A DNA stretch of 64,000 nt from an uncultured Oscillospiraceae bacterium (GCA_934655875.1 CAKUHB010000009.1:1-64000); one strand, 5' to 3'. Shown: positions 1-21,473, counted from the first letter of the stretch. Translations and numbers: made by a program. The notes: generated by a model not told the origin, from the letters alone.

Positions 1-17
1 TTCATAAAAAGACCTCC

Positions 18-1469
18 TTACGCGTTATATGTGCTCGCGGCGGTATTTCCGCCGCGGCCCGTCCAGTTGGTGTGGAAGAACTGCCCTCTGGGGCTGTCCA
101 GCCGCTCATAGGTATGGGCTCCAAAATAATCGCGCTGCGCCTGCAAAAGATTCGCGGGCAGGCGGTCGGTAGTGTAGCCGTCGAAGTAGCTGAGCGCCGC
201 CGTCATTGCGGGAGCCGGGACACCATAAGAAACAGCCGCTGCTGCAACCTTCCGCCATGCGGGAATGAGTTTTTCCATCGTCTCCTTGAAATACGGATCG
301 AGCAGGAGGTTCGACAGCTCCGGATTCTTGTCATACGCTTCCTTGATCTTGCCGAGGAAGACGGAGCGGATGATGCAGCCGCCGCGCCACATGAGGGCGA
401 TGCCGCCATAATTGAGGTTCCAACCGTAGCTCTTCGCCGCGGTGCGCATGAGGGTGTAGCCCTGTGCGTAGGAAATGATCTTGGACGCATACAGCGCCTG
501 CCGGATGGCTTCGACCATCTCTGCCTTGTCGCCGGTGAAGGCCGGGATTGTGCGTGCGTATTCCTTTGCCGCTTCCACGCGCTCAGACTTCATCGCGGAC
601 AGGCAGCGCGCAAAGACCGCTTCACCGATGAGTGTCAGCGGAACGCCCTCGTCGAGCGCCGCGATGCCCGTCCACTTGCCGGTGCCCTTCTGCCCTGCGG
701 TATCGAGAATTTTTTCCACGATGGGCTGACCGTCGGTGTCCTTGTAGGCCAGAATGTCGCGGGTGATCTCAATTAAGTAGGAATCCAGTTCGGTTTTATT
801 CCATGCGGCGAAAACCTCGTGCATTTCATCGTCCGACATGCCGAGCAGATCGCGCATGAGCTGGTAGGCTTCGCAGATGAGCTGCATATCGCCGTACTCG
901 ATGCCGTTGTGAACCATCTTGACGAAGTGCCCCGCGCCGTTTTCGCCGACCCAGTCGCAGCACGGCGAGCCGTCCTCGACCTTCGCGCAGATTGCCTGAA
1001 AGATGGGCTTGACGGACTCCCACGCGGCGGGGCTGCCGCCGGGCATCATGCTGGGGCCTTTCAGCGCACCCTCCTCGCCTCCGGACACGCCGGTGCCGAT
1101 GTAGAGCTTGCCCTTGGATTCGACGTAAGCCGTTCTGCGGATGGTGTCGGGGAAGTGCGAGTTGCCGCCGTCGATGAGGATATCGCCGTCGTCCAGCAGC
1201 GGCAGAAGCTGCTCGATCATGTCGTCCACGGCGTTGCCGGCTTTGACCATCATGAAGACCTTGCGTGGTTTTTCCAGATTGTCAACCAGTTCTTCAAGGC
1301 TGTGGCAGCCGATGATGTTCTTGCCCGCGGCTCTGCCGGTTACGAATTTGTCCACCTTCTCCGTCGTGCGGTTGAAGACCGCCACGGTGAAGCCTTTGGA
1401 CTCCATGTTCATGACGAGATTTTCGCCCATGACGGCAAGGCCGATCAGACCAATATCTGCTTTTTTCAT
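18..1469 (-). CDS. gnd: 6-phosphogluconate dehydrogenase (decarboxylating)
   Basis: 483-aa ORF. The N-terminal Rossmann motif [12 protein letters not shown] is followed by 6PGDH C-terminal domain signatures. ATGA overlap with the upstream kinase gene indicates translational coupling. Confidence 0.9.
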
Positions 1470-2533
1470 CGCTGTACCCTCGCGTTTCCCTTGTAAATAT
1501 CCCAGACCTGCTTCTCATCGGCAGGCTCGGCGTAGTCGTTAAGGCTCGACGCCGCCAGCACACCGCTCGCCCAGCCGAATTGCAGGCACTGTTCCGGCTC
1601 CCAGCCGTTCAGAACGCCATAGAGCAGGCCGCCGGAGAAGCCGTCGCCGCCGCCGATGCGGTCGAGCACCTGAATCTCACGGGGTTCCTCGACGTACCAC
1701 TTGCCGTCCGCAAGCAAAATTGCGCCCCAGAGGTGCTCGTTCGCCGAAACGACCTGCCGCAGCGTGGTCGCGAACAGCTTCGCGTTCGGATATTTTGCCT
1801 GCACCTGCGAGATCATGCCCTTGAACGATTCAATCTTGGAGGACAGATCTTTGCCGCCCGCTTCGGGACCTTTAAAGCCAAGGCAGAGCTGGAAGTCCTC
1901 CTCGTTGCCGATGAGCACGTCAGCCAGAGACGCAATCTCGCTGAACGCCTTGGACAGTTCTTCCTCGCGGCCCTTCCAGAACGTCGCGCGGTAGTTGAGG
2001 TCGAACGAAACGAGCGTGCCGTACTGCTTCGCGGCTTTTGCCAGCGCAAGGCAGCACTCGGTCGTCTCATGGCTCATGGCCGCAATGAGCCCGGACAGAT
2101 GCAGGATACCGACGCCCTCCTGCCCGAAGATGCGGTCAACATCAAAATCCTCGATGCAAAGCGTTCTGCCGACCTCGCCCGCACGGTCATTCCAGACGCG
2201 CGGCGCTTTCAAGCCAAAACCGGAGTCCGCGATGTTAAACTGATGGCGATAGCCCCACGGCCCGCCCTGCTCCACGTCCAGACCCTCAATGCGGATGTTT
2301 CGCGCGCGCAGCTGCCGCTTGATGAAGTCCGCGACGGGGCTTCCCTTGACGAATTTGGTGAGTGCCAGGCACTCCCGCCCAAGGCTCGACGCGACGTTCA
2401 GGACGTTGGTTTCCGCGCTCGTCGCCTGCATATAAAACTGATTGCTGTTCTGCACCGCCATGCGGTCGGGCGGCGTAATGCGCACGCCCATGCTCGTCGG
2501 GCAGGCAATGGCATATTGATAGATTGCTTTCAT
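1466..2533 (-). CDS. kdgK: PfkB-family carbohydrate kinase, probably 2-dehydro-3-deoxygluconokinase
   Basis: 355 aa with the PfkB signature [12 protein letters not shown] and ribokinase-like fold motifs. It is a same-strand neighbour of the KduD-like SDR gene. Specificity is inferred from context only. Confidence 0.65.
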
Positions 2534-2565
2534 ATATATTCTCCTTAGAAATTAGAACAACGTAG

Positions 2566-3738
2566 TCATCGATGGAGTCCCAACACATATCCACCAGTCT
2601 TGCCGACGACTACGTTGTTTTCCACACGAATCCCGCCGATTCCCGGAATGTACACGCCGGGCTCAATTGCGATGACCATGCCCTCGCGCAGCACGTCCTG
2701 AGAGCCGGGTTCCAGATGCGGGAAACCTTCGCTATGCGCAAACCCGGTACCATGGCCGGCAGGATGTACAAAGTACTGACCGTATCTGCGTTCTTCCAGA
2801 TATGCACGGCAGGCCGCATCTACTTCGGCGCCACGCACACCGTCTTTCGCCATCGCCAGCCCCGCCTGGAACGCGCCGCTGACGGCATCATATGCCTGCT
2901 TCTTTTCACCGCGAAAGCCGCCGACGCAGCCCGTTCGGGTAAGATCTGCCCAATATCCGTCCATGCAGGCACCGATCTCGTACATAGCGACGTCGCCATC
3001 CTGCAATACTCTGCCGCAGCTGAGAATACCATCTGCCCAAGCTACCAGAGAACGCTCCGGCCCGGTGCTCAACTGGCCGAATGGACGCGCAGCGCCGCGC
3101 GCGCCGCGGTAGCCGCAGGCCAGCTTCGTATAATATGCCTGCGTCTCCGCCAGTACGTCGACCTCGCGGATGCCCGGCGTCTGAAGCAGCGTTTCAAAAT
3201 AATCCAGCGCCTTTTGCAGTACTTCGTTGACGAGCTCCAACTTCTCCAGATCGCTCTCATTTTTGATGCTCCGGATATCGCGGATCGCATCTTTTACATA
3301 GATAAAATCGTCGGTATCAAAGCCCTGCTTCAGAATGTTTCGCGTCGTACTGCCGCAAAGCTGCACCTTATTGGCAACGAACGTCGGCGCCATGACGTCT
3401 TCGCCGCCTTCAATCGCGATTTTTGGGTGCACACCAAGCTGATAGCGCGCGGCCAATTCATGGATAACGTTCACAACGTTTTGGATGGGGTCGCCGTCGG
3501 AAAGCAGAACATCGCCAAATCCGATCGCATTGGTGATCCCAACCTCTTTCGTATCCTCCAGCTCAACCATGGGGCAAATCACGACGGGTTCGCCCGAAGC
3601 AGGAACGAAGAGGAATGCAAAACCGTAGCGGGGCCAATACTGGGTAAAGAGCACAAGATTTTCCGGCAGGCGCAGCAGCGCTGCTGCCGCCTTGTTTTCA
3701 CGCAGCCAGCTCTGAAACGCGTCAAGATGTTGATACAT
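2566..3738 (-). CDS. M24-family metallohydrolase (creatinase/prolidase-like), paralog A
   Basis: 390 aa. The M24 metal-ligand motifs are present: DGYWADLTRT, HPAGHGTGF..HSE, IEPG, VENNV. It is clearly paralogous to the ORF at 8291-9451, sharing the N-terminus MYQH..F....LRLPEN..LFTQYWPR. Confidence 0.75.
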   Translation of the reverse strand: MYQHLDAFQSWLRENKAAAALLRLPENLVLFTQYWPRYGFAFLFVPASGEPVVICPMVELEDTKEVGITNAIGFGDVLLSDGDPIQNVVNVIHELAARYQLGVHPKIAIEGGEDVMAPTFVANKVQLCGSTTRNILKQGFDTDDFIYVKDAIRDIRSIKNESDLEKLELVNEVLQKALDYFETLLQTPGIREVDVLAETQAYYTKLACGYRGARGAARPFGQLSTGPERSLVAWADGILSCGRVLQDGDVAMYEIGACMDGYWADLTRTGCVGGFRGEKKQAYDAVSGAFQAGLAMAKDGVRGAEVDAACRAYLEERRYGQYFVHPAGHGTGFAHSEGFPHLEPGSQDVLREGMVIAIEPGVYIPGIGGIRVENNVVVGKTGGYVLGLHR

Positions 3739-3798
3739 GGTGTGTCCTCCTGTAAAAGTGTATATTCAGTTTTTAAAAACGCAGCAGCATGGATACAT

Positions 3799-4575
3799 TT
3801 AAAGCGACGCCTGCCAACCGCCGTCGACATAGACCGTAAAGCCATCCACGTAATCCGACGCCGGTGACGCAAGGAAAATCACGGTACCGACAATGTCCTC
3901 CGGCTTGCCCCAGCGGCCAAGCGGAACCTCTCCGACGACCCAGCTGTTGAACGTCTCGTCCTCTACGAGACATTTCGTCAATTCAGTCTCGATATAACCT
4001 GGGCCGACGGCATTGACGTTCAGGCCAAAGCGGCCCCACTCCGTTGCCATTGATTTCGTGAGCATTTTCAGGCCACCCTTTGCCGCGCTGTAATTGGCGA
4101 TATTTGTGCGTGCCAGCTCCGCATTCAGCGAGGTAACGTTGATGATCTTTCCGTGTTTTCGCGGGATCATATGCTGCGCAACAGCCTGTCCCATCAAAAA
4201 GGCGCTCGTCAGGTTCACATCGATCACGCGCTGCCAGTCTGCCGCCGGCATTTCTGCAAGCGGATGTCTGCGATGGATCCCGGCATTGTTGATCAGCACA
4301 TCAATCGGGCCGATCTCCGACTCGATCTTTTCCACAGCCGCATGCACCTGCGTCTCGTCTGAAACATCGAAGCAAAGGCCATAGGCAGGGAAGCCGTTTG
4401 CGCGGCGCTCTGCGACCACCGCGTCCAGTGTTTCCTGATGCGTGCCGTTCAGAACGACGGTCGCACCCGCGCGCAGGCAGGCATCCGCATATGCCAGTCC
4501 CAACCCACGACTGGAGCCCGTGATCACAACGATCCTGTTCTCCAGAGAAAATAAGCGATTCAAATACTCGTTCAT
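3799..4575 (-). CDS. SDR-family oxidoreductase (KduD / gluconate 5-dehydrogenase-like)
   Basis: 258 aa with the TGSSRGLG glycine-rich NAD(P)-binding motif and the YxxxK catalytic motif (NYSAAKGG). Confidence 0.8.
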   Translation of the reverse strand: MNEYLNRLFSLENRIVVITGSSRGLGLAYADACLRAGATVVLNGTHQETLDAVVAERRANGFPAYGLCFDVSDETQVHAAVEKIESEIGPIDVLINNAGIHRRHPLAEMPAADWQRVIDVNLTSAFLMGQAVAQHMIPRKHGKIINVTSLNAELARTNIANYSAAKGGLKMLTKSMATEWGRFGLNVNAVGPGYIETELTKCLVEDETFNSWVVGEVPLGRWGKPEDIVGTVIFLASPASDYVDGFTVYVDGGWQASL

Positions 4576-4584
4576 AAAAATCTC

Positions 4585-6099
4585 CTAGTCCACCATATAT
4601 TGCAGCAGCAGCGACTTTTTGATATCCGTGCTGTGATTGTCCAGTTCCTTTACGCAGCGGCCCTGCTTGATAATGTAGATCCGGTCGCAAAGCGCAATCA
4701 ACTCATCCAACTCATCCGAAATGTAGAGGATCGCAGTGCCCTGCTCCGCAGCCTGCTGCGTGACCAGTTCGTAGATCTCACTCTTTGCGCCGACGTCGAC
4801 ACCTCTGGTCGGCTGATCCAGAATCAAAAGCTTGGGATCGTTCATCAGACACTTACCGATTGCAACTTTTTGCTGATTGCCGCCGGAAAGATCAGAGATT
4901 ACCTGTTTGGGGCTTGTGCATTTGACAGACATGAAGCGGATCATATCCTGTACCTTGCTGCCAAGCATTTTATAGTTCAGTGCAAATGCTCTTTGAACCT
5001 TTCCGAGATATGACAGCCACATGTTTGTGTTGATCCCAAGCTTCAGAACCAGACCCTCCAGCTTTCGATCCTCCTGCACCATGTTGATGCCCATGTGAAC
5101 GGCCTTCGTTGGGCTGGTGATCTGCACGGTTTTTCCTTCATAGCAAATGCTTCCGGAGCCGACCTTCTCCGCGCCGAAGATCATTTTCGCGATCTCCGAA
5201 CGCCCGGAACCGACAACGCCCGCCAGACCCACGATCTCTCCTTTGCGAATACAGAGCGAAACGTCATGGATCAGATCCCGCGCCGTTGTCAGACCCTTGC
5301 AGTCCAGCAGCACCTCGCGATCCGTTTTCGGCTCACCGATATTTTTCTCAATGGCTGCTTCCCTGCCGATCATCCACTGTACAAGCTGGTTGACCGTGCA
5401 ATCCTTCGTCTCGGCTGTCGCCACGGTCCGCCCGTCTCGCAGTACGGTCAGCCGGTCCGCGACCTCAAAAACCTCTTCCAGATAATGCGAGATATAGATG
5501 ATGCTGATACCCTTTTCCCGTAGCATCCGAATGACCTTGAACAGCTGCTGTGTCTCTGTATGAGAAAGGGAAGAGGTCGGCTCATCCATAACGATCACTC
5601 TGGAATTGCAGGAGACCGTCCGCGCAATCAGTACCAACTGCTGCTGAGCCGGGCTGAGCGTTGAGACCATCGCCGTCGCTGGAATCTGGAATCCAAGCAT
5701 CTGCATCAGCTTCTCGGTTTCCTGATACATCTGTTTTCTATCAAGGATCTTCTGCGCACGATCCCGGAACAGCTCGCGTCCCAGATAAATGTTTTCCGCG
5801 ACATTCCGGCAGCCGACCAGATCGAGTTCCTGATGGATCATCGTAATACCGCAGTTGTACGCATCGCGCGGCGTATGGAAGGACACCGATTTCCCATTGT
5901 ACCGGATCTCGCCGGCTGTCAGTGAATAGATCCCGTTCAGAATCTTCATCAGCGTCGACTTTCCTGCGCCGTTTGCGCCAAGCAGCGCATGCACTTCTCC
6001 CGTACGCAGCTCAAAATTCACTTCGTCGAGCACGCGCACACGGGAAAATTCCTTCACGATGCCGTGCATTTCAAGAATATTTTCACGCAATACAGTCAC
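4585..6099 (-). CDS. Sugar ABC transporter ATP-binding protein (two fused nucleotide-binding domains)
   Basis: 504 aa with a duplicated Walker A (GANGAGKST; a second P-loop-like region) and an LSGGQQQ signature. The architecture is RbsA/MglA-like. Confidence 0.85.
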   Translation of the reverse strand: MTVLRENILEMHGIVKEFSRVRVLDEVNFELRTGEVHALLGANGAGKSTLMKILNGIYSLTAGEIRYNGKSVSFHTPRDAYNCGITMIHQELDLVGCRNVAENIYLGRELFRDRAQKILDRKQMYQETEKLMQMLGFQIPATAMVSTLSPAQQQLVLIARTVSCNSRVIVMDEPTSSLSHTETQQLFKVIRMLREKGISIIYISHYLEEVFEVADRLTVLRDGRTVATAETKDCTVNQLVQWMIGREAAIEKNIGEPKTDREVLLDCKGLTTARDLIHDVSLCIRKGEIVGLAGVVGSGRSEIAKMIFGAEKVGSGSICYEGKTVQITSPTKAVHMGINMVQEDRKLEGLVLKLGINTNMWLSYLGKVQRAFALNYKMLGSKVQDMIRFMSVKCTSPKQVISDLSGGNQQKVAIGKCLMNDPKLLILDQPTRGVDVGAKSEIYELVTQQAAEQGTAILYISDELDELIALCDRIYIIKQGRCVKELDNHSTDIKKSLLLQYMVD

Positions 6100-6120
6100 T
6101 CCCTTCTTCCGCGCAGCGGC

Positions 6121-7068
6121 TTACTCGCGCTTTTTGTTTGCAAAGCTGTCAATGCCGACCGCAACAATCAGGATCACGCCGGTAATGGCATCCTGCCAGA
6201 AGCTCGACACGCCGGACAGCTGCAAAATATTCAGGATGATACCCATAATCATTGTGCCGATGATACAGCCGCCGATGGAGCCGACACCGCCATCCAGCGA
6301 GGTTCCGCCGACGATGCACGCCGACATGACCTTCAACTCATATCCGTCCATGCCATCGGCTGTACACATCAGGATCCGGAGCGTGTAAACCAGCGCGCCG
6401 ATCGAAGCGAACAGGCCACTGATCACAAGCGCCAGCGTCTTGATCACATCAACGTTTACGCCGGACAGCCACGCGGCACGCTTGTTGCCGCCGGTCGCAT
6501 AGATATACTGGCCGAAGCGGGTCTTTCGGAGAATGTACGCCATGACGAGCGCCAGCACGAGCCAGATCAGCGCCGGTACGGGGATCACACCGGCGATCTT
6601 TCCCATGCCGATGATATTAAATGCCCTTGGTATGCCGGTGATCGGCTTTGCGCCGGTAATAATGTAGACAAGGCCACGGACAGATGTCTGTGTGCCGAGC
6701 GTCGTAACGAACGGGTTGATGCCGATTTTTGTTACCAGGAAGCCGTTGATCAGGCCGATCACGATACCGGTCAGAAGTCCGACCAGAATACCGGGCACAA
6801 AGCCGTATTTTACAAACATCATCGTGGACAGGACGCCGGTCAGCGCGCCAGTCGACGAGACAGACATATCAAACGAGCCTGTGACCAATGCGAACACCAT
6901 GCCGAGCGCCATGATGCCGACAATGGCATTCTGCGCAAGCAGATTCATCAGATTGGACAAAGAGAGGAACAAGGGGTTAATGATTACGCTGACCAGCATC
7001 ATGGCTGCAAGCACGATCAGCATGGTCAGTTCTTTGGACTTCAAGATTGGATTCTTTTTTCGCTCCAC
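6121..7068 (-). CDS. ABC transporter permease (ribose/monosaccharide type)
   Basis: 315 aa, polytopic hydrophobic, RbsC-like. It sits between the ATPase and the binding-protein gene. Confidence 0.85.
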   Translation of the reverse strand: MERKKNPILKSKELTMLIVLAAMMLVSVIINPLFLSLSNLMNLLAQNAIVGIMALGMVFALVTGSFDMSVSSTGALTGVLSTMMFVKYGFVPGILVGLLTGIVIGLINGFLVTKIGINPFVTTLGTQTSVRGLVYIITGAKPITGIPRAFNIIGMGKIAGVIPVPALIWLVLALVMAYILRKTRFGQYIYATGGNKRAAWLSGVNVDVIKTLALVISGLFASIGALVYTLRILMCTADGMDGYELKVMSACIVGGTSLDGGVGSIGGCIIGTMIMGIILNILQLSGVSSFWQDAITGVILIVAVGIDSFANKKRE

Positions 7069-7171
7069 TGTGATCCCAACTTTCTAAATATAGATTTGGC
7101 ACGGCAGCAAACGGGGGTAATTGCTGCCGTGCCATTTTCATTCATTGCACGTGCAAATCGTCAGGTGACGC

Positions 7172-8227
7172 TTACCAGGCAACATCGTAATCCTCGCAGT
7201 TTTCCGCGGTCACGATCGGAAGATCGATTGCAGTCAATGCTTCAAATTTTGCGTCCGGGTTCGTAAAGTACTCGTAAACGACCTCCGCTGCCTTCTGGCC
7301 CTGGATTGCGGGGGACTGGTTTACAGTCGCGTAAATATTGCCCGCCAGGATCCCTTCCTTTACGTAGGACGGGTAATCAAACGCAGTGATCTTGCCGAGC
7401 AGCTCTGTGCGTCCGGCTTCGATGCAGGCTTCCGCCACGCCGACGGCATCGTCCGGGCCCTGTGTGATGACAGCGTCGATCTCGCCGGCCTGGAACTTCG
7501 TGAGCATGTTCTGCGCGACCTGAATGGCGGTTGCCTTATCCCAGTCGCTGTTCTGTTCGAAAACAACCTCGATCTCGGGATAGTCCTTCAGATACTCATA
7601 AAAACCTTCGCTCTCCTGCACTTGCGGGCCGGAGCCGAGCGTACCGAGCAGATATGCGATCTTGCCCTTGCCGCCGGTCAGTTCCACTGCCAGCTGCGCT
7701 TCCAGACGACCGGCTTCGACGCAGTCCATGTTGACCTCCGTGATGATGTCAGCACCTTCGCCAAGGGAACGGTTGATGACAACAACGGGAATGTTGGCCT
7801 CATTGCATTCCTGCACGACGGGAACCAGAGAGTTGGACTGGGCCGGAACCAGAATAATCAGATCCTTGCCCTGCGTGATGAAGTTTTCAACGATGGTCGT
7901 CTGCGTAACAGGGTCATCCTTGCCATCCTGCGTGTCTACGTTGAAGCAGCCGTATGCTTCCAGTGCTTCCACGCACTCGTTCATGATGGCGACCTGGAAC
8001 GGCGTGCCGAAATTCGCGCAGCAATAGCCGATCTCCCAGACCTTATCGCTGGTGGCTTCAGCGTCGCTGGTGGCTTCGGCGTCGCTGGCAGCCTGTTCCG
8101 CTACGTCAGTGGTGTCGGTGGGTGTTGCCGCGGTGTCAGCAGGGGTCTGATCGGGGGTGGCTGCACAACCTGTCAGCAGTGCAAATACGAGGATGAGTGC
8201 AAGAGCGAGTGCCAAGATTTTTTTCAT
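7172..8227 (-). CDS. Sugar ABC transporter substrate-binding lipoprotein
   Basis: 351 aa with a signal peptide and lipobox (LLTGCAAT). A low-complexity T/D/A-rich linker precedes a periplasmic-binding-protein fold resembling RbsB/LacI-type binding proteins. Confidence 0.8.
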   Translation of the reverse strand: MKKILALALALILVFALLTGCAATPDQTPADTAATPTDTTDVAEQAASDAEATSDAEATSDKVWEIGYCCANFGTPFQVAIMNECVEALEAYGCFNVDTQDGKDDPVTQTTIVENFITQGKDLIILVPAQSNSLVPVVQECNEANIPVVVINRSLGEGADIITEVNMDCVEAGRLEAQLAVELTGGKGKIAYLLGTLGSGPQVQESEGFYEYLKDYPEIEVVFEQNSDWDKATAIQVAQNMLTKFQAGEIDAVITQGPDDAVGVAEACIEAGRTELLGKITAFDYPSYVKEGILAGNIYATVNQSPAIQGQKAAEVVYEYFTNPDAKFEALTAIDLPIVTAENCEDYDVAW

Positions 8228-8290
8228 TATGTTACATTCCTTTCTCTTTGTGTCATCGTCTTATAGGTTCCTGCTATGTTGCGAAAAACG

Positions 8291-9451
8291 TTACCAGCCA
8301 AACGGTACGCCGCCATGCGGTGTGACCAGAACGTTTAACTCCTTGCGCAGACCGCCGACGCCAGGAACATATAGTCCGGGTTCAATGGCGATCACCATGT
8401 TTTCCTTCAGTACATCCTGTGACGAGGGACTGAGCGTGGGGATTGATTCATGATAATTAAATCCCGTTCCGTGTCCCGCCGGATGCAGATAATACTTTCC
8501 GTAGCCAGCGTCTTCCATGACCTTGCGTGTCGCGCGGTCGATGTCGCTGCCAGTCGCGCCAGGTCTTGCCGCGGCTACGCCGGCCTCAAAGGCCTGATGG
8601 ATCAGATCCAGCATCTTCCTGCTTTCCCCTCGAGCGCCGCCGACGACAGCAGAGCGCGTAATGTCCGCCCAGTAGCCATCCACGCAGAGCCCAAGCTCCA
8701 GCAGGCAACAGTCGCCATCCTGTAGGACGCGTCTGTCGCTGATAACGCCTTCACACGAGGCCACCTCGCCCTTTTTGCCAGTGCTGAGCTGTGCCCATGC
8801 GCGCGCCACGCGTGCACCGCAGAAGCCTGCCGCATTCAGCTGCAGCTGCTTCTCGATCTCCGTCACCACGGCAAGCTCCGTCATGTGCGGCACCTGAATG
8901 AGGTCTTCAAACCGATCCATAGCCTGCGCAGCCAGCTCGTTCACGACCTTCAGCTTCTCAATGTCCTGCTCGTTCTTGATCGCCATGATCGGCGGGATCA
9001 GATCCCGGACGGTGACGAAATGATTGCTCCCAAAGCCCTCTGTGACCAGACGGTATGTATTGCGCCCGACGAGGGAAACCTTTCCCGAGCAGAAGCACGG
9101 CGCGACCATATCGTAATCCAGCTCCAGACCGATTTTCGCGTCCTTTTCCAGACCGTAGGCCTCGGCAAGCTTCCGGAAGACCGCAACGGTCTGCTCATCC
9201 GGATCGCCGCTGGCCATATCGACATCGTTATAGGAATAGATGTTTGTCAGCTCCGCAAGCTCGGCGTCCTCGGTCTCCACCAGTGGGACAACCACTGCCG
9301 GCTTTCCCGTTTCCGGGATCACCAGATAGGAGTTTGCATTTCTCGGCCAGTACTGGGTGAACAGCGTCATGTTCTCCGGCAGCCGCAGGACAGAAAGCGC
9401 AATGCCAGCGCCGCTCATTGCAGCCTGAAATTCTTCAATGTGCTGGTACAT
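8291..9451 (-). CDS. M24-family metallohydrolase (creatinase/prolidase-like), paralog B
   Basis: 386 aa with M24 ligands DGYWADITRS, HPAGHGTGFNYHE, IEPG. It is paralogous to 2566-3738. Confidence 0.75.
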   Translation of the reverse strand: MYQHIEEFQAAMSGAGIALSVLRLPENMTLFTQYWPRNANSYLVIPETGKPAVVVPLVETEDAELAELTNIYSYNDVDMASGDPDEQTVAVFRKLAEAYGLEKDAKIGLELDYDMVAPCFCSGKVSLVGRNTYRLVTEGFGSNHFVTVRDLIPPIMAIKNEQDIEKLKVVNELAAQAMDRFEDLIQVPHMTELAVVTEIEKQLQLNAAGFCGARVARAWAQLSTGKKGEVASCEGVISDRRVLQDGDCCLLELGLCVDGYWADITRSAVVGGARGESRKMLDLIHQAFEAGVAAARPGATGSDIDRATRKVMEDAGYGKYYLHPAGHGTGFNYHESIPTLSPSSQDVLKENMVIAIEPGLYVPGVGGLRKELNVLVTPHGGVPFGW

Positions 9452-9511
9452 ATCTGCATCCTTTCTTATTTTTTATTGATCATTCTCACAGTTTTCCGTG
9501 AACATGTGCAC

Positions 9512-10840
9512 TTACAGCTCTGCCTGCATGGCCTTGAAGATGTCCTCCATGCGGTTGAGCGTGATGTTGATATCCTCCATCGTGTGCTGCGCACTGAAGC
9601 CGTAGTGTGCCGGCGCGGCTGCGCCGCAGTCGTGCATGAACAGGCCGTGCTCGAGCGCCTTCACGAGGAAGCTGTGGGTCATATCCGAACGGTAGCTGTC
9701 GCCGGTCTTTCTCCAGTCGTAATCGTCCTCGGGGTTCTGTACGCCAAAGTAAACGCCGAAGCGTGCGCCGATGCCGCTGACGTGGCCGGGGATGCCGTAC
9801 TGCTGCATCAGCTGATTCATGCCGCCGTAAAGCGCGTCCGCCTTTTCGTTGATCCCGTCATAGAAGCCCGGCTCCATCGCCATCTTCATGCACTCGATCG
9901 AAGCCAGAACCGGCATAAGCGCGCCCGTATATGTTCCGCTCATGATGGTCTTGCCAATGGGGTTCAGGACCTGCATAACCTCACGCTTGCCGCAGAGCGC
10001 TGCAATCGAGAAGCCGCCGCCGATGGCCTTTGCAAATGTACCGAGATCGGGTGTGACACCGTAATAAGCCTGTGCGCAGCCGGGCGCCATCCGCAGGCCG
10101 CAGATGACCTCGTCGAAGATCAGAACGATGCCTTCCTTGGTACACAGATCGCGAACCTTCTCAAGGTATTCTTTTCTTGCCGCGTAGCAGCCGCAGTTAT
10201 AGCTGATCGGCTCCATCATGACCGCAGCGACCTTGCCTTTATTGGCAGCGACAGCCTTCTCCAGCGCGTCAAAGTCATTGAACGGCACATTGCGGACAAC
10301 CTCACTGAAGCATTTCGGCATACCGGCGGTATCCGGAATGTTCTCCACGGTGCCGTCCGCATGAATTTCACCGCGGGCCCCGTTGTGGTTGAACCAGATC
10401 AGCTCGTGCATGCCATGGAAGTGGCCTTCCATTTTGATGATGATGTCCTTCCCGGTGTAGGCGCGCGCCACACGCTCGGCGGCCATCGTGACCTCAGTGC
10501 CGGTGTTGGAAAGGCGGATCATCTCTGCACAGGGAAACATCTTCTGATAGAGCTTTGCCAGCTCTGTGTGATACGGCGTTTCAAAGTTCATGAAGAAGCC
10601 GAGATCCATCGCTTTCTCCGCCGCCGCGCGGAGTCTCGGATGGTTGTGGCCGAAGAAAGCCGCACCGGAACCGGTATGGTAGTCGATGTATTCCTTGCCG
10701 TTGACGTCGTAGATACGGCTTCCATCGGCATGATCCAGATACAGCGGCTGCTGGATGGTGGAATTGAACCGGCCGCCGGCGCTGCCGCCTCCCACGAAGT
10801 ATTTCCGTGCTTCCTCATAAACACTCTTTAACTTATCCAT
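9512..10840 (-). CDS. Class-III (omega) pyridoxal-phosphate aminotransferase
   Basis: 442 aa with the glutamate-1-semialdehyde aminomutase / acetylornithine aminotransferase-like fold, including the FDEVICG..R motif and a PLP-lysine region. It is the first gene of the minus-strand operon. Confidence 0.8.
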   Translation of the reverse strand: MDKLKSVYEEARKYFVGGGSAGGRFNSTIQQPLYLDHADGSRIYDVNGKEYIDYHTGSGAAFFGHNHPRLRAAAEKAMDLGFFMNFETPYHTELAKLYQKMFPCAEMIRLSNTGTEVTMAAERVARAYTGKDIIIKMEGHFHGMHELIWFNHNGARGEIHADGTVENIPDTAGMPKCFSEVVRNVPFNDFDALEKAVAANKGKVAAVMMEPISYNCGCYAARKEYLEKVRDLCTKEGIVLIFDEVICGLRMAPGCAQAYYGVTPDLGTFAKAIGGGFSIAALCGKREVMQVLNPIGKTIMSGTYTGALMPVLASIECMKMAMEPGFYDGINEKADALYGGMNQLMQQYGIPGHVSGIGARFGVYFGVQNPEDDYDWRKTGDSYRSDMTHSFLVKALEHGLFMHDCGAAAPAHYGFSAQHTMEDINITLNRMEDIFKAMQAEL

Positions 10841-10890
10841 TTTACACGCTCCTGCTCCACATTGGAATGGTTTTTGATGTGAAATCTGAG

Positions 10891-10906
10891 ACCTGAAATA
10901 TCAGGT
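10891..10906. promoter_or_regulatory. Candidate GntR-family operator: perfect palindrome ACCTGA-AATA-TCAGGT just downstream of the -10
   Basis: The 6-4-6 inverted repeat acctgaaatatcaggt conforms to the GT..AC core typical of FadR-subfamily GntR operators. It lies between the divergent gntR gene and the catabolic operon. Confidence 0.4.
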
Positions 10907-10916
10907 ATCTGATTTC

Positions 10917-10944
10917 ATTATAATCGACTCGCCAAAAATGTCAA
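10917..10944 (-). promoter_or_regulatory. Sigma-A-type promoter for the catabolic operon (-35 TTGACA, 16-bp spacer, -10 TATAAT on the minus strand)
   Basis: The reverse complement reads ggaaTTGACAtttttggcgagtcgatTATAATgaaatc, about 75 nt upstream of the aminotransferase ATG. Confidence 0.5.
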
Positions 10945-11053
10945 TTCCTTTCCCGAATTTTCTCGGATTTTGGTTGTTTTAACAAAAATCGCGTAAAGCA
11001 ATTGTATATATTTCTTGTTTCGCGCTGCAATCTGATATTTTTTGTTTCAGCTA

Positions 11054-11083
11054 TTGCCTATTTGGGTGTTTCCTGTTATAATA
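11054..11083 (+). promoter_or_regulatory. Putative promoter of the GntR regulator gene (-35 TTGCCT, extended -10 TGtTATAAT)
   Basis: Read from the sequence: ttgcct at 11054-11059, 18-bp spacer, TATAAT at 11078-11083, about 30 nt before the ATG at 11112. Confidence 0.35.
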
Positions 11084-11111
11084 TATAAAATTAGTTTTAT
11101 GGTGGGTTGAT

Positions 11112-11759
11112 ATGGCTATCAATACGGAAAGTCTTACTGAACAGCTTGCGACGCTGATCCTGGAAATGATCATGCGCAGAGAGCTGGTCGCCGGTGAGCA
11201 GATCCCAACGAAAAAAATCGCAGAGGATAACAATGTCAGTGTGACGCCGGTCCGTCTCGCGCTGCGTGAGCTGGCAGACCGCAAGCTCGTTGTAAACAAA
11301 GCCCGTGTCGGATATTTTGTGGCGGAATATTCAACGGCCAAGCTGATCGCAATTTCCAACTGCCGCAAGATGTTTGAGCTTTACTGCATGGAGACGTATT
11401 TCGATTCTCTGGATCTTGACCGGCTGCACCGGCTCTATGACAGCATTGAGGAGAATTTTGCCGGTCATTTTGATGAGGTTCGTTACCAGAAGGACGATAT
11501 TGCGCTCCACGAGAGCTTTGTGCTCGCGTCCCACAATGAATTTATCATCACGCAGTATAGCCAGATCAAGGATCTGATCTCCCTGTTCGTGATTTACGAC
11601 AGCGATAACATGGCGCACAATCATCTTTCGCGCGCAGAGCATCTGCGCCTGCTCAACTATATTTTTGATAAGAAAAAAAATGCGGCAATTTTGGAGTTAA
11701 AGAACCATCTTGACCGCACTGACCGCACCTTGCTGGAACTGGATTCAAAAAAAACATAA
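11112..11759 (+). CDS. GntR-family transcriptional regulator (FadR/FCD subfamily)
   Basis: 215 aa with an N-terminal winged HTH (…IPTKKIAEDNNVSVTPVRLALRELADRKLV) and a C-terminal all-helical FCD-like domain. It is divergent from the catabolic operon. Confidence 0.85.
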   Translation: MAINTESLTEQLATLILEMIMRRELVAGEQIPTKKIAEDNNVSVTPVRLALRELADRKLVVNKARVGYFVAEYSTAKLIAISNCRKMFELYCMETYFDSLDLDRLHRLYDSIEENFAGHFDEVRYQKDDIALHESFVLASHNEFIITQYSQIKDLISLFVIYDSDNMAHNHLSRAEHLRLLNYIFDKKKNAAILELKNHLDRTDRTLLELDSKKT

Positions 11760-11798
11760 ATGCGTGCGCATTTCGTGCCAACTTGGAGCGCAGCTGCA

Positions 11799-11830
11799 AC
11801 CTCCGCATCGAAAGATGCGGAGGTTTTTTG
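11799..11830 (+). terminator. Rho-independent terminator after the gntR-family gene
   Basis: The hairpin acctccgcatc-gaaa-gatgcggaggt is followed by TTTTTT. Confidence 0.65.
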
Positions 11831-11944
11831 CATCTTCCCCCCTTTGACTGTATTATCTCCGCGGATGGTTTTTGTCAAAATAGCTATTTTTTCGGGGCGG
11901 AAATTTATGAAAATGACGATTTCTCTATTATATGTTTATCGGGC

Positions 11945-11973
11945 TTGCAATCAGAATACATTTGTATTACGAT
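11945..11973 (+). promoter_or_regulatory. Putative promoter of the RHH-TIR/RCC1 operon (-35 TTGCAA, 17-bp spacer, -10 TACGAT)
   Basis: This is the only reasonable sigma-A-like pair in the 11831-11996 region, followed by the RBS AAAGGAG at 11981-11987. Confidence 0.3.
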
Positions 11974-11996
11974 GGTAAATAAAGGAGTGATGCTGT

Positions 11997-12188
11997 TTGG
12001 TGGAACCGCGTTTGGAGATTCCGGCGAAGAAATACACCGGCGAATCCGCAGTGATTTCCATGCGATTGCCGCGGGATATGCTGCTGGAAATCGACACAAT
12101 CGCAGCCGATACGGGTCGGACAAGAAATGAAGTTTTAACACTCTGCATGGAGTTCGCATTGAACCATCTCGATAAGGAATCGAAATAA
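11997..12188 (+). CDS. Ribbon-helix-helix (CopG/Arc-like) DNA-binding protein, putative operon regulator
   Basis: 63 aa. The beta-strand ISMRLPRDML is followed by two helices (LEIDTIAADTGRTRNEVLTLCMEFAL). TTG or GTG start 10-13 nt after AAGGAG; the start codon is uncertain. Confidence 0.55.
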   Translation: MVEPRLEIPAKKYTGESAVISMRLPRDMLLEIDTIAADTGRTRNEVLTLCMEFALNHLDKESK

Positions 12189-12209
12189 GGCCGAAAGAGA
12201 GAGAACAGA

Positions 12210-15200
12210 ATGGCGATGATCAAGTGCAAGATGTGCGGCGGGGATTTAAACGTCGAAGAAAACAGCCAGATCGCAGTCTGCGAATACTGCGGGACGCAGC
12301 AGACCGTTCCGAAGCAGGATAACGAGAAGAAGCTGACGCTGTTTGCGCGTGCAAACCGGCTGCGCTTTGCCTGCGAATTTGATAAGGCGGCGGGCGTTTA
12401 TGAGTCCATCGTGGCGGAGTTCCCGGAGGAGGCGGAAGCCTATTGGGGGCTTGTGCTCTGCAAATACGGTATTGAATACGTTGACGATCCGGCGACGGGT
12501 AAAAAGGTTCCGACCTGCCACCGGTCGAGCTTTGACAGCGTTCTGGAGGACGCGAACTTTGAGCTGGTCATGGAATACGCCGACGTAGTCACGCGGAAGC
12601 TTTACCGCGAGGAAGCCAAGGCCATCGAGGAGCTGCGGCGCAGGATCATCGAGGTCTCCAGCCGTGAAGAGCCGTATGACATTTTCATCTGCTATAAAGA
12701 GACGGACGAAAACGGCCAGCGGACACTCGATTCCGTCCTGGCGCAGGATTTATATGACGCGCTGACGGAAAAGGGCTACCGGGTATTTTTCTCCCGCATT
12801 ACGCTGGAGGACAAGCTCGGGCAGGAATACGAGCCGTATATCTTCGCCGCGCTCAACTCCGCGCGCGTCATGCTGGCCGTCGGGACGGACTATGAGTATT
12901 TTAACGCCCCGTGGGTCAAGAACGAGTGGAGCCGGTATTTGCAGCGCATCGCCGCCGGGCAGAAGAAATCGCTCATCCCGTGCTATAAAAATATCGACGC
13001 CTACGACATGCCGAAGGAATTTGCAAAGCTGCAGGCACAGGATCTCGGCAAGGTCGGTGCAACGCAGGATCTACTGCGCGGGATCGACAAGCTGCTGGGG
13101 AAAACAAGCACTCCCGCGGTTCCGGTGCAGCCCGCTCCGATGCAGGCTGCTGCTGCGCCGAATGTTGATTCGCTTCTTCGCCGCGGCAATCTGTTTCTGG
13201 AGGACCGCGACTGGACGAACGCAAAAACCTACTTCGATAAGGTTCTGGATATCGTTCCGGAGTGCGGCGCGGCGTATCTGGGGAAATTTCTTGCTGCAAA
13301 GAAGGCAAAAACGGTCGCGTCGTTTGTCCGGCGCTATGTGGAAGACATTGCGGCCCATGCACCGGCGCGCACCCGGCAGGATGCCTGCAAGCCGGACGAG
13401 ACATTCATCGCTGCCTGTCTCAATAAGTATCAGGTGCCGGAATATCTGGACGCACGCGAAATCCGGTCTCTGCTGCGCTTCGATCTTACGTATCATGCCG
13501 GGCTTGCAGACTATTATCACGACTGCTTCCTGCGCGCGGCGCAGATGCTTGGCAGCGAAAAGGACTTTGTCCGTGCTGAAAAGTATGCTGACGCGGATGT
13601 GCAGACGCAATGCGAGCTGCTGCGCAGCAAAATCCTGAACGATCTTCATGCCCGGCAGCAGGCCGCGGAGCAGGAGGAAGCCGGCGAAAAGCAGCGCATC
13701 ACGGAAGCCTATCATACATTTTTAAAGGAAACCGAATCAACGCTCGCCGCACGGCAGAAGGAAGCGCTTGAAAAGAAGAAAGCGCATGACAAGCTCGCGG
13801 AACGGCTGCGGTTGGAACGGGAAAAGCACGAAAAAGCGGCAGCAATCGAGCGGGAAAAGCAGGAAAAGCTGAGAAAAATCGCCGAGCAGGAGGCAAAACA
13901 AAAGGCCGCAAAGGCCCGGAAGCTCACGATCATCGGCGGCACTGCGGCAGCTGTCATCCTCGCAGCCGTGTTGATCATTACAAAGGTCATGATTCCGTCG
14001 CAGAAATATGCCAACGCCGCAGCGCTGCTGGATGCCGGAAACTATGATGACGCCATTTCAGCCTTTGCCGCATTGGGCGAGTATAAGGATTCTGCTGCCA
14101 TGTGCAGCAGCGCCGCGCACGCAAAAGCCTATGCGGAAGCGGAAACACTGCTGGCCGCCGGAGATTATAAGGGCGCGAGCGCCGCATTCGCTGCATTGCA
14201 GGATTATAAGGACGCGGCAAGCCGCGCAGATGCCGCAAGAAGCCAGCAGCTTGAAGCGGAAAACGCACAGGCCTATGCAAATGCGGAAGCACTGCTGGAT
14301 GCCGGAAACTATGCTGCCGCTGCCAAGGCGTTCCAAGCACTCGGCGACTACAAGGACGCGGCAGAGCGTGCGCAGGACTGCCCGTACATAGAAGCCGAGC
14401 AGCTTCTGGCGCAGGGAAAAACCGCAGAAGCCTCCATTGCGTTTGGAAGAATTGCCGGATATAAGGATGCGCTGGAGCGGAGCTTTGCGCTGAGAGCTTC
14501 CAGCGATCCTACAATTATTGCGAAGGACGATCATATCGTTGCGCTGAAAGAGGACGGTACTGTAGTCGCCATCGGCAATAACGAGTATGGGCAATGCGAT
14601 GTTGCCGACTGGACGAATCTTGTGGCAATCGATGCAGGATTCCTCTATACGGTCGGCCTGAAAGCGGATGGGACTGTGCTTGCTGTGGGCTATAACGATG
14701 ATGGCCGATGCAATGTTTCCGATTGGACGGACATCACAGCGATCCGCGCCGGCAGCTATCACACGGTCGGCCTGAAAACAAATGGAACCGTCGTTGCTGT
14801 AGGAGACAACGACTTGGGTCAATGCGATGTTGCCGACTGGACAGATATTACTGCCATCAGTGCCAGAGAGCATCACACGGTCGGTCTCAAGGCAGATGGC
14901 ACGGTAGTCGCCGTGGGCTATAACAGGTTTGGCCAATGCGATGTTTCCGGCTGGACGGATATCGTGGCGATCAGCACGGGGTATAATCACACGGTCGGCC
15001 TGAAAGCAGACGGAACGGTGGTCGCCGCAGGAAATAACGAGGATGGACAATGCGATGTATCTGATTGGACAGATATTGTAGCAATCAAGGCAGCATACAA
15101 ACACACAGTCGGCTTGAAATCGGACGGAACCGTGGTCGCTGTTGGTTTTAATGAATATGGTCAGTGTGACGTTTCAGATTGGACAGATATGATAGCAATT

Positions 15201-15434: not shown

Positions 15435-15455
15435 CGAAGAAAGAAGGACGAGAAG

Positions 15456-18608: not shown

Positions 18609-18629
18609 TAGAGAAAGAAGGACGAGAAG

Positions 18630-21458: not shown

Positions 21459-21473
21459 GAGAGGAAGAACGCA

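Follow-up and report, generated by a model that had tools for sequence, protein, structure and literature searches.

A GntR-associated operon of an uncultured Oscillospiraceae bacterium that may serve the uptake and catabolism of an amide-masked amino-hexonate

What compound requires two M24-family hydrolases and a class-III aminotransferase to be encoded together with a sugar importer and enzymes of hexonate metabolism? This question is raised by positions 18-11759 of a 64,000-nucleotide stretch of DNA from an uncultured Oscillospiraceae bacterium (GCA_934655875.1, CAKUHB010000009.1:1-64000), hereafter called the window, in which an earlier note had described a GntR-controlled catabolic operon of unusual make-up. 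The analysis described below shows which genes are present and in what order, to which families they belong, and that the operator motif and the neighbourhoods are conserved; the operon is real and coherent, and what is new is a pair of uncharacterised feeder enzymes on a sugar-acid operon with a known type of back end. On the reading that we favor, to which we give roughly even weight, this is a GntR(FCD)-repressed operon through which an amino-hexonate whose amine is masked as an amide (an amino sugar acid or its lactam) is taken up and catabolised. Full-text literature searches turned up no paper on this pathway.

Nine co-directional open reading frames (ORFs) lie on the minus strand from 18 to 10840, divergent from the gene for an FCD-type GntR regulator, an arrangement described in the earlier note and borne out by the ORFs and by Pfam and NCBIfam matches. 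In transcription order the domains are Aminotran_3, M24, Peripla_BP_4, an ATP-binding cassette (ABC) transporter permease, an ABC ATPase, a short-chain dehydrogenase/reductase (SDR), M24, PfkB, and 6-phosphogluconate dehydrogenase (6PGD). The spacing between ORFs ranges from −4 nt (an overlap) to 103 nt (a gap). Upstream stands a promoter, TTGACA-16 nt-TATAAT (10917-10944, minus strand), which had been called near-consensus and which in fact matches at 12/12 positions, the only such match in 1-12300. No convincing intrinsic terminator was found within the operon on the minus strand. The close spacing, the one consensus promoter, and the lack of a convincing internal terminator together indicate a single transcription unit.

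Curated NCBIfam/TIGRFAM equivalog cut-offs served as membership tests for named families, and among the nine operon proteins 6PGD alone reaches one. The first gene (9512-10840, minus strand, as are all operon genes) encodes a HemL-like class-III aminotransferase of 442 amino acids (aa) (PF00202, 207.5 bits), followed by M24-B, a clade-B M24 metallohydrolase of 386 aa (8291-9451; PF00557, 158 bits). The next three genes specify a CUT2 importer, as judged from the combination of Peripla_BP_4, BPD_transp_2 and a fused double ATPase, which reaches no substrate-specific equivalog cut-off. It consists of a lipoprotein solute-binding protein (351 aa; 7172-8227; Peripla_BP_4 PF13407, 177 bits) with the lipobox signal MKKILALALALILVFALLTGC and with ribose-binding proteins as its nearest structures (E 6e-34); a permease (315 aa; 6121-7068; PF02653, BPD_transp_2) resembling AraH and RbsC at scores under their cut-offs; and an ATPase with two ATP-binding cassettes (504 aa; 4585-6099, with a start at 6090 in public gene calls; PF00005 twice) that scores 482-485 bits on xylose and ribose ATPase models, also under their cut-offs. 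The distal genes encode SDR1, a gluconate-5-dehydrogenase (IdnO/Gno)-like reductase (258 aa; 3799-4575); M24-A, a clade-A M24 metallohydrolase (390 aa; 2566-3738; PF00557, 147 bits); a PfkB-family sugar-acid kinase (355 aa; 1466-2533; PF00294); and Gnd, an NADP-dependent decarboxylating 6PGD (483 aa; 18-1469; TIGR00873, 764.5 bits against a cut-off of 426.7).

The operon is incomplete in the window because a tenth gene is cut by the left window edge. Its first codons (positions 1-5, minus strand, ATG at 5-3) start 13 nt past the gnd stop, behind an AAGGAGG ribosome-binding site at 19-13, and probably belong to a D-mannonate-oxidoreductase-type SDR (SDR2). A public contig of the same strain, L095, runs 69 nt beyond gnd, and the 23 N-terminal residues that it supplies, MNLPLNTDLTGKVAVITGAGGVL, match SDR2 of the related locus L089 at 16/23 residues (loci and lineages compared are designated by L numbers throughout). 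The earlier claim of one GntR-controlled catabolic operon is thus upheld by the gene packing, the promoter and an operator motif found in seven lineages, with the correction that the operon extends beyond the sequence at hand. As a separate observation, three independent metagenome assemblies and the contig of the window all end at gnd or within ~70 nt of it, inside the next SDR gene (L095 9453-9533; ends of L176 and L177). This shared break suggests repeated or strain-variable sequence after gnd, such as a second mannonate-oxidoreductase copy or a mobile element.

Comparison of homologous neighbourhoods, which the earlier note had proposed as a check, showed that the gene set is conserved, with rearrangements, across diverged lineages. 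Several assemblies from the human gut, a Hadza sample among them, contain operons identical to that of the window. The conserved core comprises GntR, the HemL-like class-III aminotransferase, an M24 hydrolase, a sugar transporter and often glutamate dehydrogenase (GDH), the last in four lineages (L089, L097, L008, and L091); the exceptions are L010/L092, which have no transporter, and L093, whose short contig carries neither aminotransferase nor GntR. The fullest relative, L089/L090, has GDH, M24-A and GntR on one strand and, on the other, the aminotransferase, M24-B, the ABC transporter, SDR1, PfkB, 6PGD, SDR2, a LarA homologue and a HAD hydrolase. In L005 and L097, GntR is divergent from the aminotransferase, M24-B, the ABC transporter, GDH (in L097), UxuA and a mannitol-dehydrogenase-family enzyme. 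L010/L092, from a Christensenellaceae metagenome-assembled genome (MAG), encodes an aldo-keto reductase, a PHP-domain protein, the aminotransferase, M24-A, SDR1, M24-B, GntR, PfkB, 6PGD and a LarA homologue. Two more lineages carry clade A: L008 (M24-A, GntR, an MFS transporter, the aminotransferase, a CUT1 ABC transporter, a Gfo/Idh/MocA oxidoreductase, a GMC oxidoreductase, and GDH) and L091 (M24-A, a transaldolase/FSA-family gene, an ABC transporter, GDH, the aminotransferase, and GntR).

The strongest argument concerning the first enzymatic steps comes from lineages in which M24 has been replaced. In the two examples examined, MlrC-like genes (DUF1485+MlrC_C, M81) occupy the M24 place, namely in L178 (8490-9980), L179 (7154-8683) and L180 (3643-5172). 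L178, from Oscillibacter sp. PC13, encodes a regulator, a TRAP transporter, the MlrC-like M81 metallopeptidase, the aminotransferase, PfkB, 6PGD, SDR2 and a LarA homologue, while L179/L180, a common gut lineage, encodes a regulator, the MlrC-like M81 protein, the aminotransferase, a CUT1 ABC transporter, a second LarA-type protein, PfkB, 6PGD, SDR2 and a LarA homologue. These MlrC-type operons, which are the commoner type in the gut, share 59-60% (aminotransferase), 69-83% (PfkB) and 79-86% (6PGD) identity with the products of the window, and 63-76% (SDR2) and 71-72% (epimerase) with those of L089. Since an unrelated metallo-amidohydrolase stands in for M24 beside the same aminotransferase and the same back end, the M24 step is best read as amide hydrolysis coupled to transamination. 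Orthologues of the aminotransferase (59-88% identity) always adjoin a metallo-amidohydrolase gene. The same replacement led us to reject a dehydratase or isomerase role for M24 of this clade, which had been considered because distant M24 relatives sit in clusters with no obvious dehydratase.

Neither feeder enzyme has characterised relatives. M24-A and M24-B are 47% identical and fall into separate orthologous clades, A and B, in a neighbour-joining tree; an obligate heteromer of the two was rejected, as several lineages carry one clade only. Both clades keep the five metal-ligand positions, with the first Asp of prolidase replaced by Glu: E252, D263, H327, E357 and E371 of M24-B align with D209, D220, H284, E313 and E327 of Pyrococcus furiosus prolidase 1pv9, and these five columns are invariant or nearly so in the M24 alignment including M24-A. 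The M24-B family is rare, with ~22 proteins at >40% identity among 5.8 billion, nearly all of them metagenomic; its closest relative in a scan of genome collections is the Christensenellaceae MAG protein (51% identity), and a metagenome scan added two further close loci only. The aminotransferase family is far larger, with thousands of members, among them hundreds of proteins at 55-63% identity. The few publicly named homologues are called Xaa-Pro aminopeptidase/dipeptidase or glutamate-1-semialdehyde aminomutase, and the solved-structure neighbours of the operon proteins are generic (prolidases, HemL, ribose-binding proteins, KDG kinase, and gluconate 5-dehydrogenases). Scores on the curated models place the M24 proteins well outside PepQ (NF040821, 130 and 128 bits versus 630; NF008131, 35 and 44 versus 465), and the aminotransferase outside HemL (TIGR00713, 338.8 bits versus 527.3), in a catabolic context in which relatives carry GDH. 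That GDH is found in four lineages argues for a true 2-oxoglutarate-dependent transaminase and led us to disfavor an aminomutase.

More distant M24 relatives (30-38% identity) occur in sugar-acid clusters that have no aminotransferase: L013 (5387-14740), L094 (2189-14052) and L016 (5232-17885). DUF4432, a LarA-like protein, an RraA-like protein and a 2-hydroxyacid dehydrogenase are common to L013 and L094, and L013 also carries a KDPG aldolase and a PfkB kinase (KDG kinase); no dehydratase was evident in the M24 clusters of L013 or L094. The L016 cluster includes Gfo/Idh/MocA, a TIM-barrel isomerase, two SDRs and an enzyme of 706 aa that combines Oxidored_FMN with Pyr_redox_2 domains. The wider M24 clade is carbohydrate linked but need not always free an amine. 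In L093 (36-1964), the M24-B and ABC genes come immediately after genes for a homologue of delta-aminolevulinate dehydratase (ALAD) and for a D-2-hydroxyacid dehydrogenase; that this lineage has a HemB-like gene and others a HemL-like gene may be a coincidence or a hint of an amino-ketone intermediate.

With regard to the back end, the earlier note had called the SDR KduD-like and the downstream enzymes KDG-pathway-like. SDR1 does belong to the SDR family but scores nearer to gluconate 5-dehydrogenases (NF005488, 303.6 bits, cut-off 369; NF005983, 301.2 bits, cut-off 408) than to KduD (233 bits), reaching the cut-off of neither, and the solved structures that match it best are those of hexonate or gluconate 5-dehydrogenases (E 3e-81 to 3e-75). 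The comparison with a KDG pathway does not hold: KduI, a dehydratase and a KDPG aldolase are all missing from the operon, the genes for the kinase and 6PGD overlap, and a mannonate oxidoreductase and a nickel-dependent hexonate epimerase are encoded in addition in relatives. For these reasons we place the exit at gluconate, 6-phosphogluconate and the pentose phosphate pathway. The PfkB stop overlaps the gnd start by 4 nt, which supports 6-phosphogluconate as the kinase product, and PfkB homologues always adjoin gnd in the lineages compared; gnd homologues (72-86% identity) lie in the same cluster in L010, L089, L092, L178 and L179. The PfkB protein, whose nearest solved structure is Thermotoga KDG kinase 2afb (E 4e-33), is accordingly a putative gluconate 6-kinase that reaches no equivalog cut-off.

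The relatives provide the remaining back-end enzymes. L089 SDR2 scores 419 bits on NF006132 (D-mannonate oxidoreductase; cut-off 281), and the L089 LarA homologue scores 614 bits on NF052594 ("nickel-dependent putative hexonate epimerase"; cut-off 500), with epimerase homologues (49-72% identity) in L010, L092, L178 and L179. No copy of the hexonate epimerase was found elsewhere in the 64-kb window, and all contigs of the window's organism end after gnd. UxuA of L005 and L097 is a mannonate dehydratase (TIGR00695, 405 bits versus 200). Two back ends can therefore be distinguished, both of which pass through mannonate: SDR1, SDR2, epimerase, PfkB and 6PGD, or UxuA with the mannitol-dehydrogenase-family enzyme. 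The M24 clades track them, in that the lineages with clade B only (L005 and L097) have the mannonate/UxuA route and clade A adjoins SDR1 in the window, L010 and L092.

This module has a known counterpart. The LarA homologues GntE1 and GntE2 epimerise D-mannonate to D-gluconate; in Thermotoga this epimerisation admits mannonate to the pentose phosphate pathway, and a route from fructuronate through mannonate and gluconate to 6-phosphogluconate has been proposed for Thermotoga and for LarA-homologue group 18 (PMC7583248). For GntE2, epimerisation of mannonate to gluconate with entry into the pentose phosphate pathway has been demonstrated. Genes of LarA-homologue group 18 are associated with those for an SDR (36%), 6PGD (32%), a ribokinase-family kinase (16%) and glucuronate isomerase (12%) (PMC7583248, Table S1). 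The epimerase of our relatives belongs to group 18, and its epimerase activity is predicted. The Thermotoga/group 18 module and the present one are alike in having a mannonate-oxidoreductase SDR, a nickel-pincer hexonate epimerase (here in relatives), a kinase and 6PGD, in the same order of chemistry. Because group 18 associates with glucuronate isomerase genes, the module elsewhere is fed by fructuronate; here there is no uronate isomerase, and the aminotransferase and the hydrolase hold the feeder position. The two differ accordingly in their feeders, glucuronate isomerase there and a metallo-amidohydrolase with a HemL-like aminotransferase here, and this operon has in addition the gluconate-5-dehydrogenase-like SDR and a second M24 enzyme. 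The kinases also differ, that of Thermotoga being of the GntK type and the one here of the PfkB type. The back end of the operon, then, is not unusual and matches the fructuronate-to-6-phosphogluconate route; it is the feeder enzymes that are uncharacterised.

All of the enzymatic steps in the following scheme are inferred from these gene families and neighbourhoods, as are its substrate, its effector and the place of the nitrogen. The lipoprotein-anchored CUT2 importer would take up the substrate, and the cytoplasmic M24 enzymes would cut its amide, either a delta-lactam ring or an N-acyl group, exposing a primary amine, with clades A and B probably each serving one of two stereoisomers. The HemL-like aminotransferase would then move the amine to 2-oxoglutarate, an acceptor regenerated by GDH in relatives, to yield a keto-hexonate with its ketone beside the terminal CH2OH, namely D-fructuronate (5-keto-D-mannonate) and/or its C2 epimer 5-keto-D-gluconate. 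On the simplest reading, the aminotransferase substrate would be a 5-amino-5-deoxy-hexonate. SDR1 and the mannonate-oxidoreductase-type SDR2 would reduce the keto acids to D-gluconate and D-mannonate, so that two M24 clades and two SDRs would serve two epimers; the nickel-pincer-dependent hexonate epimerase, seen in relatives and presumably encoded just past the window edge, would convert mannonate to gluconate; the PfkB kinase would form 6-phosphogluconate; and 6PGD would deliver ribulose 5-phosphate. The ketone is placed beside CH2OH because four independent downstream enzyme types act on that feature: SDR1, SDR2, the mannitol-dehydrogenase-family enzyme accompanying UxuA in L005 and L097, and the transaldolase/FSA-family gene of L091. 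The general idea of the earlier note, import and breakdown of a nitrogen-bearing sugar acid, agrees with the conserved aminotransferase, metallo-amidohydrolase, sugar transporter and frequent GDH in the company of hexonate enzymes. A chemical precedent for the pair of hydrolase and aminotransferase is offered by DoeA and DoeD of ectoine catabolism. If GabT1 of azasugar biosynthesis acts on the C2 ketone of fructose 6-phosphate, it would be a precedent for the proposed regiochemistry. Further precedents are a caprolactamase that works with an omega-aminotransferase (PMC6061476) and the transamination by GabT1 with which azasugar biosynthesis begins (PMC8466323).

Several points weigh against this scheme. 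We know of no abundant natural 5-amino-5-deoxy-hexonate, and class-III HemL-like enzymes mostly act on a terminal CH2-NH2 or on alpha-amino aldehydes, a C6 amine giving a uronate aldehyde being equally natural chemistry. The TRAP transporter of the Oscillibacter variant (L178) argues for an anionic substrate there, which would not suit a neutral lactam as the general answer, and the M24 relatives in clusters lacking an aminotransferase indicate that the reaction of the clade need not release an amine. In addition, L010/L092 keep the epimerase without SDR2, which a two-branch scheme leaves unexplained; SDR1 and the PfkB kinase fall below every curated equivalog cut-off; and the epimerase and most of SDR2 are not visible in the window's organism, whose assemblies break after gnd.

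As for the substrate itself, the candidates include sugar delta-lactams (oxidised nojirimycin or mannojirimycin), neutral pyranose mimics that would suit a ribose-type ABC importer, and N-acyl 5-amino-hexonates, for instance from reduced hexosaminuronic acids. Talosaminuronic acid of pseudomurein was rejected on stereochemistry, as its product would be 5-keto-D-galactonate, which has neither gluco nor manno configuration. The earlier note had also entertained a glycated amino acid (Amadori compound), which is unlikely: there is no deglycase or amadoriase in the operon, and the amine appears to leave by transamination.

The lactam candidates allow a more specific proposal, which we consider unlikely: the enzymes of the M24-A and M24-B clades would hydrolyse sugar delta-lactams (azasugar lactams), and with the operon a first catabolic route for azasugars of the nojirimycin family would be in hand. 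Neutral D-glucono- and D-mannono-delta-lactam would be imported by the ribose-type ABC transporter and opened to 5-amino-5-deoxy-hexonates, and transamination, the reverse of the GabT1 step in deoxynojirimycin biosynthesis, would yield 5-ketogluconate and fructuronate for the pentose phosphate pathway.

Alternatively, the nitrogen may be carried elsewhere on the sugar acid. In the first such model, which we judge improbable, the substrate is N-acyl-D-glucosaminate or D-glucosaminate, a 2-amino-2-deoxy-hexonate derived for example from oxidised chitin or glucosamine. M24 would be an aminoacylase, the aminotransferase would form 2-keto-D-gluconate, a KguK-like PfkB kinase and a reductase would lead to 6-phosphogluconate, and 6PGD would complete the route; a 2-ketogluconate kinase and reductase route of this kind operates in Pseudomonas. 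Glucosaminate is a known natural alpha-amino acid and an ordinary transaminase substrate, M24 and M81 enzymes are peptidase or aminoacylase like, and D-2-hydroxyacid dehydrogenases adjoin M24 relatives in L093, L094 and L013. Furthermore, the oxidative chitin (GlcNAc1A) pathway of Pseudoalteromonas, with the deacetylase OngB, the deaminase OngC and KdgK, experimentally establishes a sequence of deacylase, PLP enzyme and PfkB kinase (PMC9537276). That pathway resembles the one proposed here in its N-acylated amino-hexonate, its initial amide hydrolysis followed by a PLP enzyme and a PfkB kinase, and its repressor control. It differs in employing a D-aminoacylase where M24 is found here and a D-amino-acid deaminase in place of a class-III transaminase, in proceeding through KDG and KDG-6-P and not 6-phosphogluconate, and in carrying its nitrogen at C2, as opposed to the position proposed here, C5; no OngB- or OngC-type enzyme is present in the operon. 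The enzymes of the clusters also speak against C2. Their reductases come from families that act on a ketone beside CH2OH, and no known 2-ketogluconate reductase is among them; from an achiral C2 ketone a reductase could form gluconate directly, making a C2 epimerase superfluous; and UxuA of L005 and L097 needs mannonate.

In the second model, which appears to us quite improbable, the substrate is a 6-amino-6-deoxy-hexonate, either N-acylated or as the 1,6-lactam. The aminotransferase would produce a C6 aldehyde (D-mannuronate or L-guluronate), which the SDRs would reduce to D-mannonate or D-gluconate, and the kinase would phosphorylate the same C6 hydroxyl. Class-III enzymes most commonly turn a terminal amine into an aldehyde, and structure matches of the aminotransferase include C-6' aminotransferases of aminoglycoside pathways and omega-transaminases. 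On stereochemical reasoning mannuronate would give mannonate and guluronate would give gluconate, which would explain both the two reductases and the C2 epimerase. The logic also parallels caprolactam/valerolactam catabolism, in which a caprolactamase works with an omega-aminotransferase (PMC6061476). There too a lactam ring is opened and a class-III enzyme transaminates the freed amine, but the lactamases are ATP dependent and oxoprolinase like, the substrates are not carbohydrates, and the next enzyme is an aldehyde dehydrogenase in place of the reductases found here. Against an omega-amine stand the reductase families present, which act on penultimate-carbon ketones and are not known uronate reductases, and the group 18 modules elsewhere, which are fed via glucuronate isomerase, i.e., with fructuronate. 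In addition, we are aware of no natural source of 6-amino-6-deoxy-hexonates.

A third possibility, very doubtful in our view, is that the amine does not belong to the sugar at all. The substrate would be an amide in which an amine or amino acid is joined to the carboxylate of a uronic or hexonic acid, and from which M24 would free the sugar acid while the aminotransferase deaminated the released amine. Such a conjugate would fit M24 and MlrC as peptidase families that cleave acyl-amino-acid bonds, the TRAP transporter of L178, which suits a carboxylate-bearing compound, and the M24 relatives in sugar-acid clusters that lack an aminotransferase. However, no aldehyde dehydrogenase or other enzyme that would dispose of the deaminated amine was found in the lineages examined, and no partner of the back-end module is more conserved than the aminotransferase. 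Moreover, release of gluconate or mannonate would leave the keto-reductases idle, and release of glucuronate would need a uronate isomerase, of which no cluster has any. Finally, a fortuitous mosaic, in which a spare paralogue of HemL and two peptidases of the ordinary prolidase type lie by chance among genes for sugar transport and gluconate metabolism and share no pathway with them, might be read from the best named matches (Xaa-Pro dipeptidases for M24, HemL for the aminotransferase) but is strongly disfavoured, to the point of being scarcely credible, by the retention of the gene set, with rearrangements, in seven or more diverged lineages with a common operator motif, by scores far under the equivalog cut-offs (PepQ, 128-130 versus 630; HemL, 339 versus 527), and by the tight gene packing behind one promoter.

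Returning to the amide-masked amino-hexonate, the proposed pathway can also be set against better-known catabolic systems. The earlier note had held that the operon corresponds to none of Frl, Doe or Kdu, and the curated family cut-offs agree. For Frl, there is no SIS-domain protein and the score on the FrlD model NF007321 is 23.9 bits, where 247 would be required. For Kdu and KDG metabolism, there is no KduI and no aldolase, the KduD models score 233 bits versus 339-369, and the KDG-kinase models 33-92 versus 400-440. Ectoine catabolism employs DoeA, an M24 ring-opening hydrolase, with DoeB, the class-III aminotransferase DoeD, and DoeC, and it shares with this operon an M24 hydrolase that opens or unmasks a nitrogen compound, a class-III aminotransferase that takes the freed amine, and a regulator of the GntR superfamily. 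In contrast to Doe, the M24 proteins here score 34-57 bits on DoeA models with cut-offs of 575-613 (37.5 and 56.8 bits on TIGR02993, cut-off 613), genes of the DoeB or DoeC type are missing from 1-11759, transport relies on a CUT2 ABC system of the sugar type, and the products would enter gluconate and pentose phosphate metabolism, not aspartate metabolism. The Escherichia coli L-idonate/5-ketogluconate system (GntII/Idn) is alike in that an IdnO-type SDR reduces 5-ketogluconate to gluconate, which then passes through 6-phosphogluconate to Gnd. It is unlike the present operon in that the latter has no IdnD and no IdnK-type kinase, its SDR1 lies under the IdnO cut-offs (301-304 versus 369-408 bits), and its 5-keto acid would arise from transamination and not from idonate oxidation.

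How the operon is controlled is suggested by its promoter region. The regulator, of the FadR subfamily (FCD) of GntR proteins (215 aa; 11112-11759, plus strand; PF00392, 45.4 bits, cut-off 27; PF07729, 33.2 bits, cut-off 24.3), has orthologues (36-72% identity) in every M24-type lineage except L093. Its gene is preceded by a promoter with an extended −10 element, TTGCCT-17 nt-TGtTATAAT (11054-11082, plus strand; 10/12 matches plus the TG extension), and followed by an intrinsic terminator (11798-11825, plus strand; a 12-bp stem with 7 G-C pairs, then a T-run). In front of the operon, the sequence that had been described as a perfect palindrome is present at 10891-10906 as the 16-mer ACCTGAAATATCAGGT, which begins 10 nt downstream of the −10 hexamer; it has perfect 6-bp arms (ACCTGA/TCAGGT) around an AATA core, with 7/8 pairs complementary, so it falls short of a perfect palindrome. 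Together with an abutting 13/16 site at 10877-10892, it forms an operator region (10877-10906) corresponding to ~+5 to +34 of the operon transcript.

These match counts refer to a consensus from other lineages, against which every 16-mer of the window was scored. Positions 10891-10906 are the unique best match in the 64 kb (14/16), for which reason the motif is more than chance, and the abutting site is one of four at 13/16. A weaker site (11030-11045; 12/16, one of 25 such) lies just upstream of the gntR −35 box, so that all three fall within one 271-bp intergenic region. When the oriented regulator-aminotransferase intergenic regions of the window, L005 and L089 were compared (regulators 61-72% identical), the element just past the −10 hexamer on the transcribed strand was found to read ATCTGAAATATCAGAT in L005 and L089 and ACCTGATATTTCAGGT in the window; the 16-mer is downstream of the −10 box in L005, L097 and L089. 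A degenerate search located it upstream of the aminotransferase gene in L097, L010, L092, L008 and L091 as well, in some with one or two mismatches; together with L005 and L089 this makes seven diverged lineages that carry the 16-mer, AT[C/G]TGAWATWTCAGAT, and it is kept even where the regulator is only 36-38% identical. It also occurs upstream of separately transcribed M24-A genes. This phylogenetic footprint is good evidence that the 16-mer is very probably the operator, a repressor site at ~+5 to +20. The repressor would thus bind the 16-bp palindrome just inside the transcript of the consensus promoter, and a pathway intermediate would presumably release it. Better second sites stand at the position equivalent to 11030-11045 in L005, L097 and L089; autoregulation of gntR through this site is possible, the evidence in the window itself being weak.

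If the proposed pathway is correct, gut Bacillota would possess an unrecognised route by which nitrogen-bearing sugar acids enter hexonate and pentose phosphate metabolism. The pathway would also give the M24 clade, and by replacement the M81/MlrC-like enzymes, a first non-peptidase, carbohydrate-linked role, and it would assign a function to a large family of "HemL-like" aminotransferases. From their place in L178 and L179/L180, MlrC homologues may have a carbohydrate-linked role unrelated to microcystin. The neighbourhoods provide a physiological context for the group 18 nickel-pincer (predicted) hexonate epimerases. Were the azasugar proposal true, a new non-peptidase function of the M24 fold would be added, and it would be shown that glycosidase inhibitors produced by plants or by other microbes can be consumed by gut Clostridia. 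The substrate can be approached by experiment through the conserved operator, regulator and binding protein.

Two further features lie within the operon. One is a G+C-rich RNA hairpin of 14 bp without a T-run (7097-7134, minus strand) between the binding-protein and permease genes; the segment 7060-7180 (minus strand) folds at −40.9 kcal/mol (z −2.9), and 0/200 shuffles fold as well. This hairpin may stabilise mRNA or attenuate read-through, and we suspect that it might raise binding-protein mRNA over that of the transporter genes. The other lies within the coding sequence of the binding protein (7848-7863, plus strand): a 16-mer that resembles the operator, with one mismatch (ACCAGAATAATCAGAT), and that may be due to chance or may be an internal regulatory site.

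Beyond gntR, the region 12210-25010 (plus strand) contains three tandem paralogous genes for giant proteins (1074, 1050, and 942 aa), each with a TIR domain and C-terminal RCC1 repeats, the second and third also with N-terminal TPR repeats. Next come genes for an SPFH/Band-7 protein bearing zinc ribbons (21474-23333) and for one more protein with RCC1 repeats (23334-25010), and the whole may be an island for TIR-based defence or signalling. In every public contig of the strain that reaches that far, gntR has the first TIR gene as its neighbour; between the two lies a 63-aa ORF (11997-12188, plus strand) that has no Pfam match and is called in 3/5 public contigs spanning the position. Further downstream is the gene for a surface protein of 1313 aa (25978-29919, plus strand) that combines VWA and InlB-type B-repeat domains with three SLH domains, which suggests that the cell envelope carries surface proteins anchored through SLH domains.

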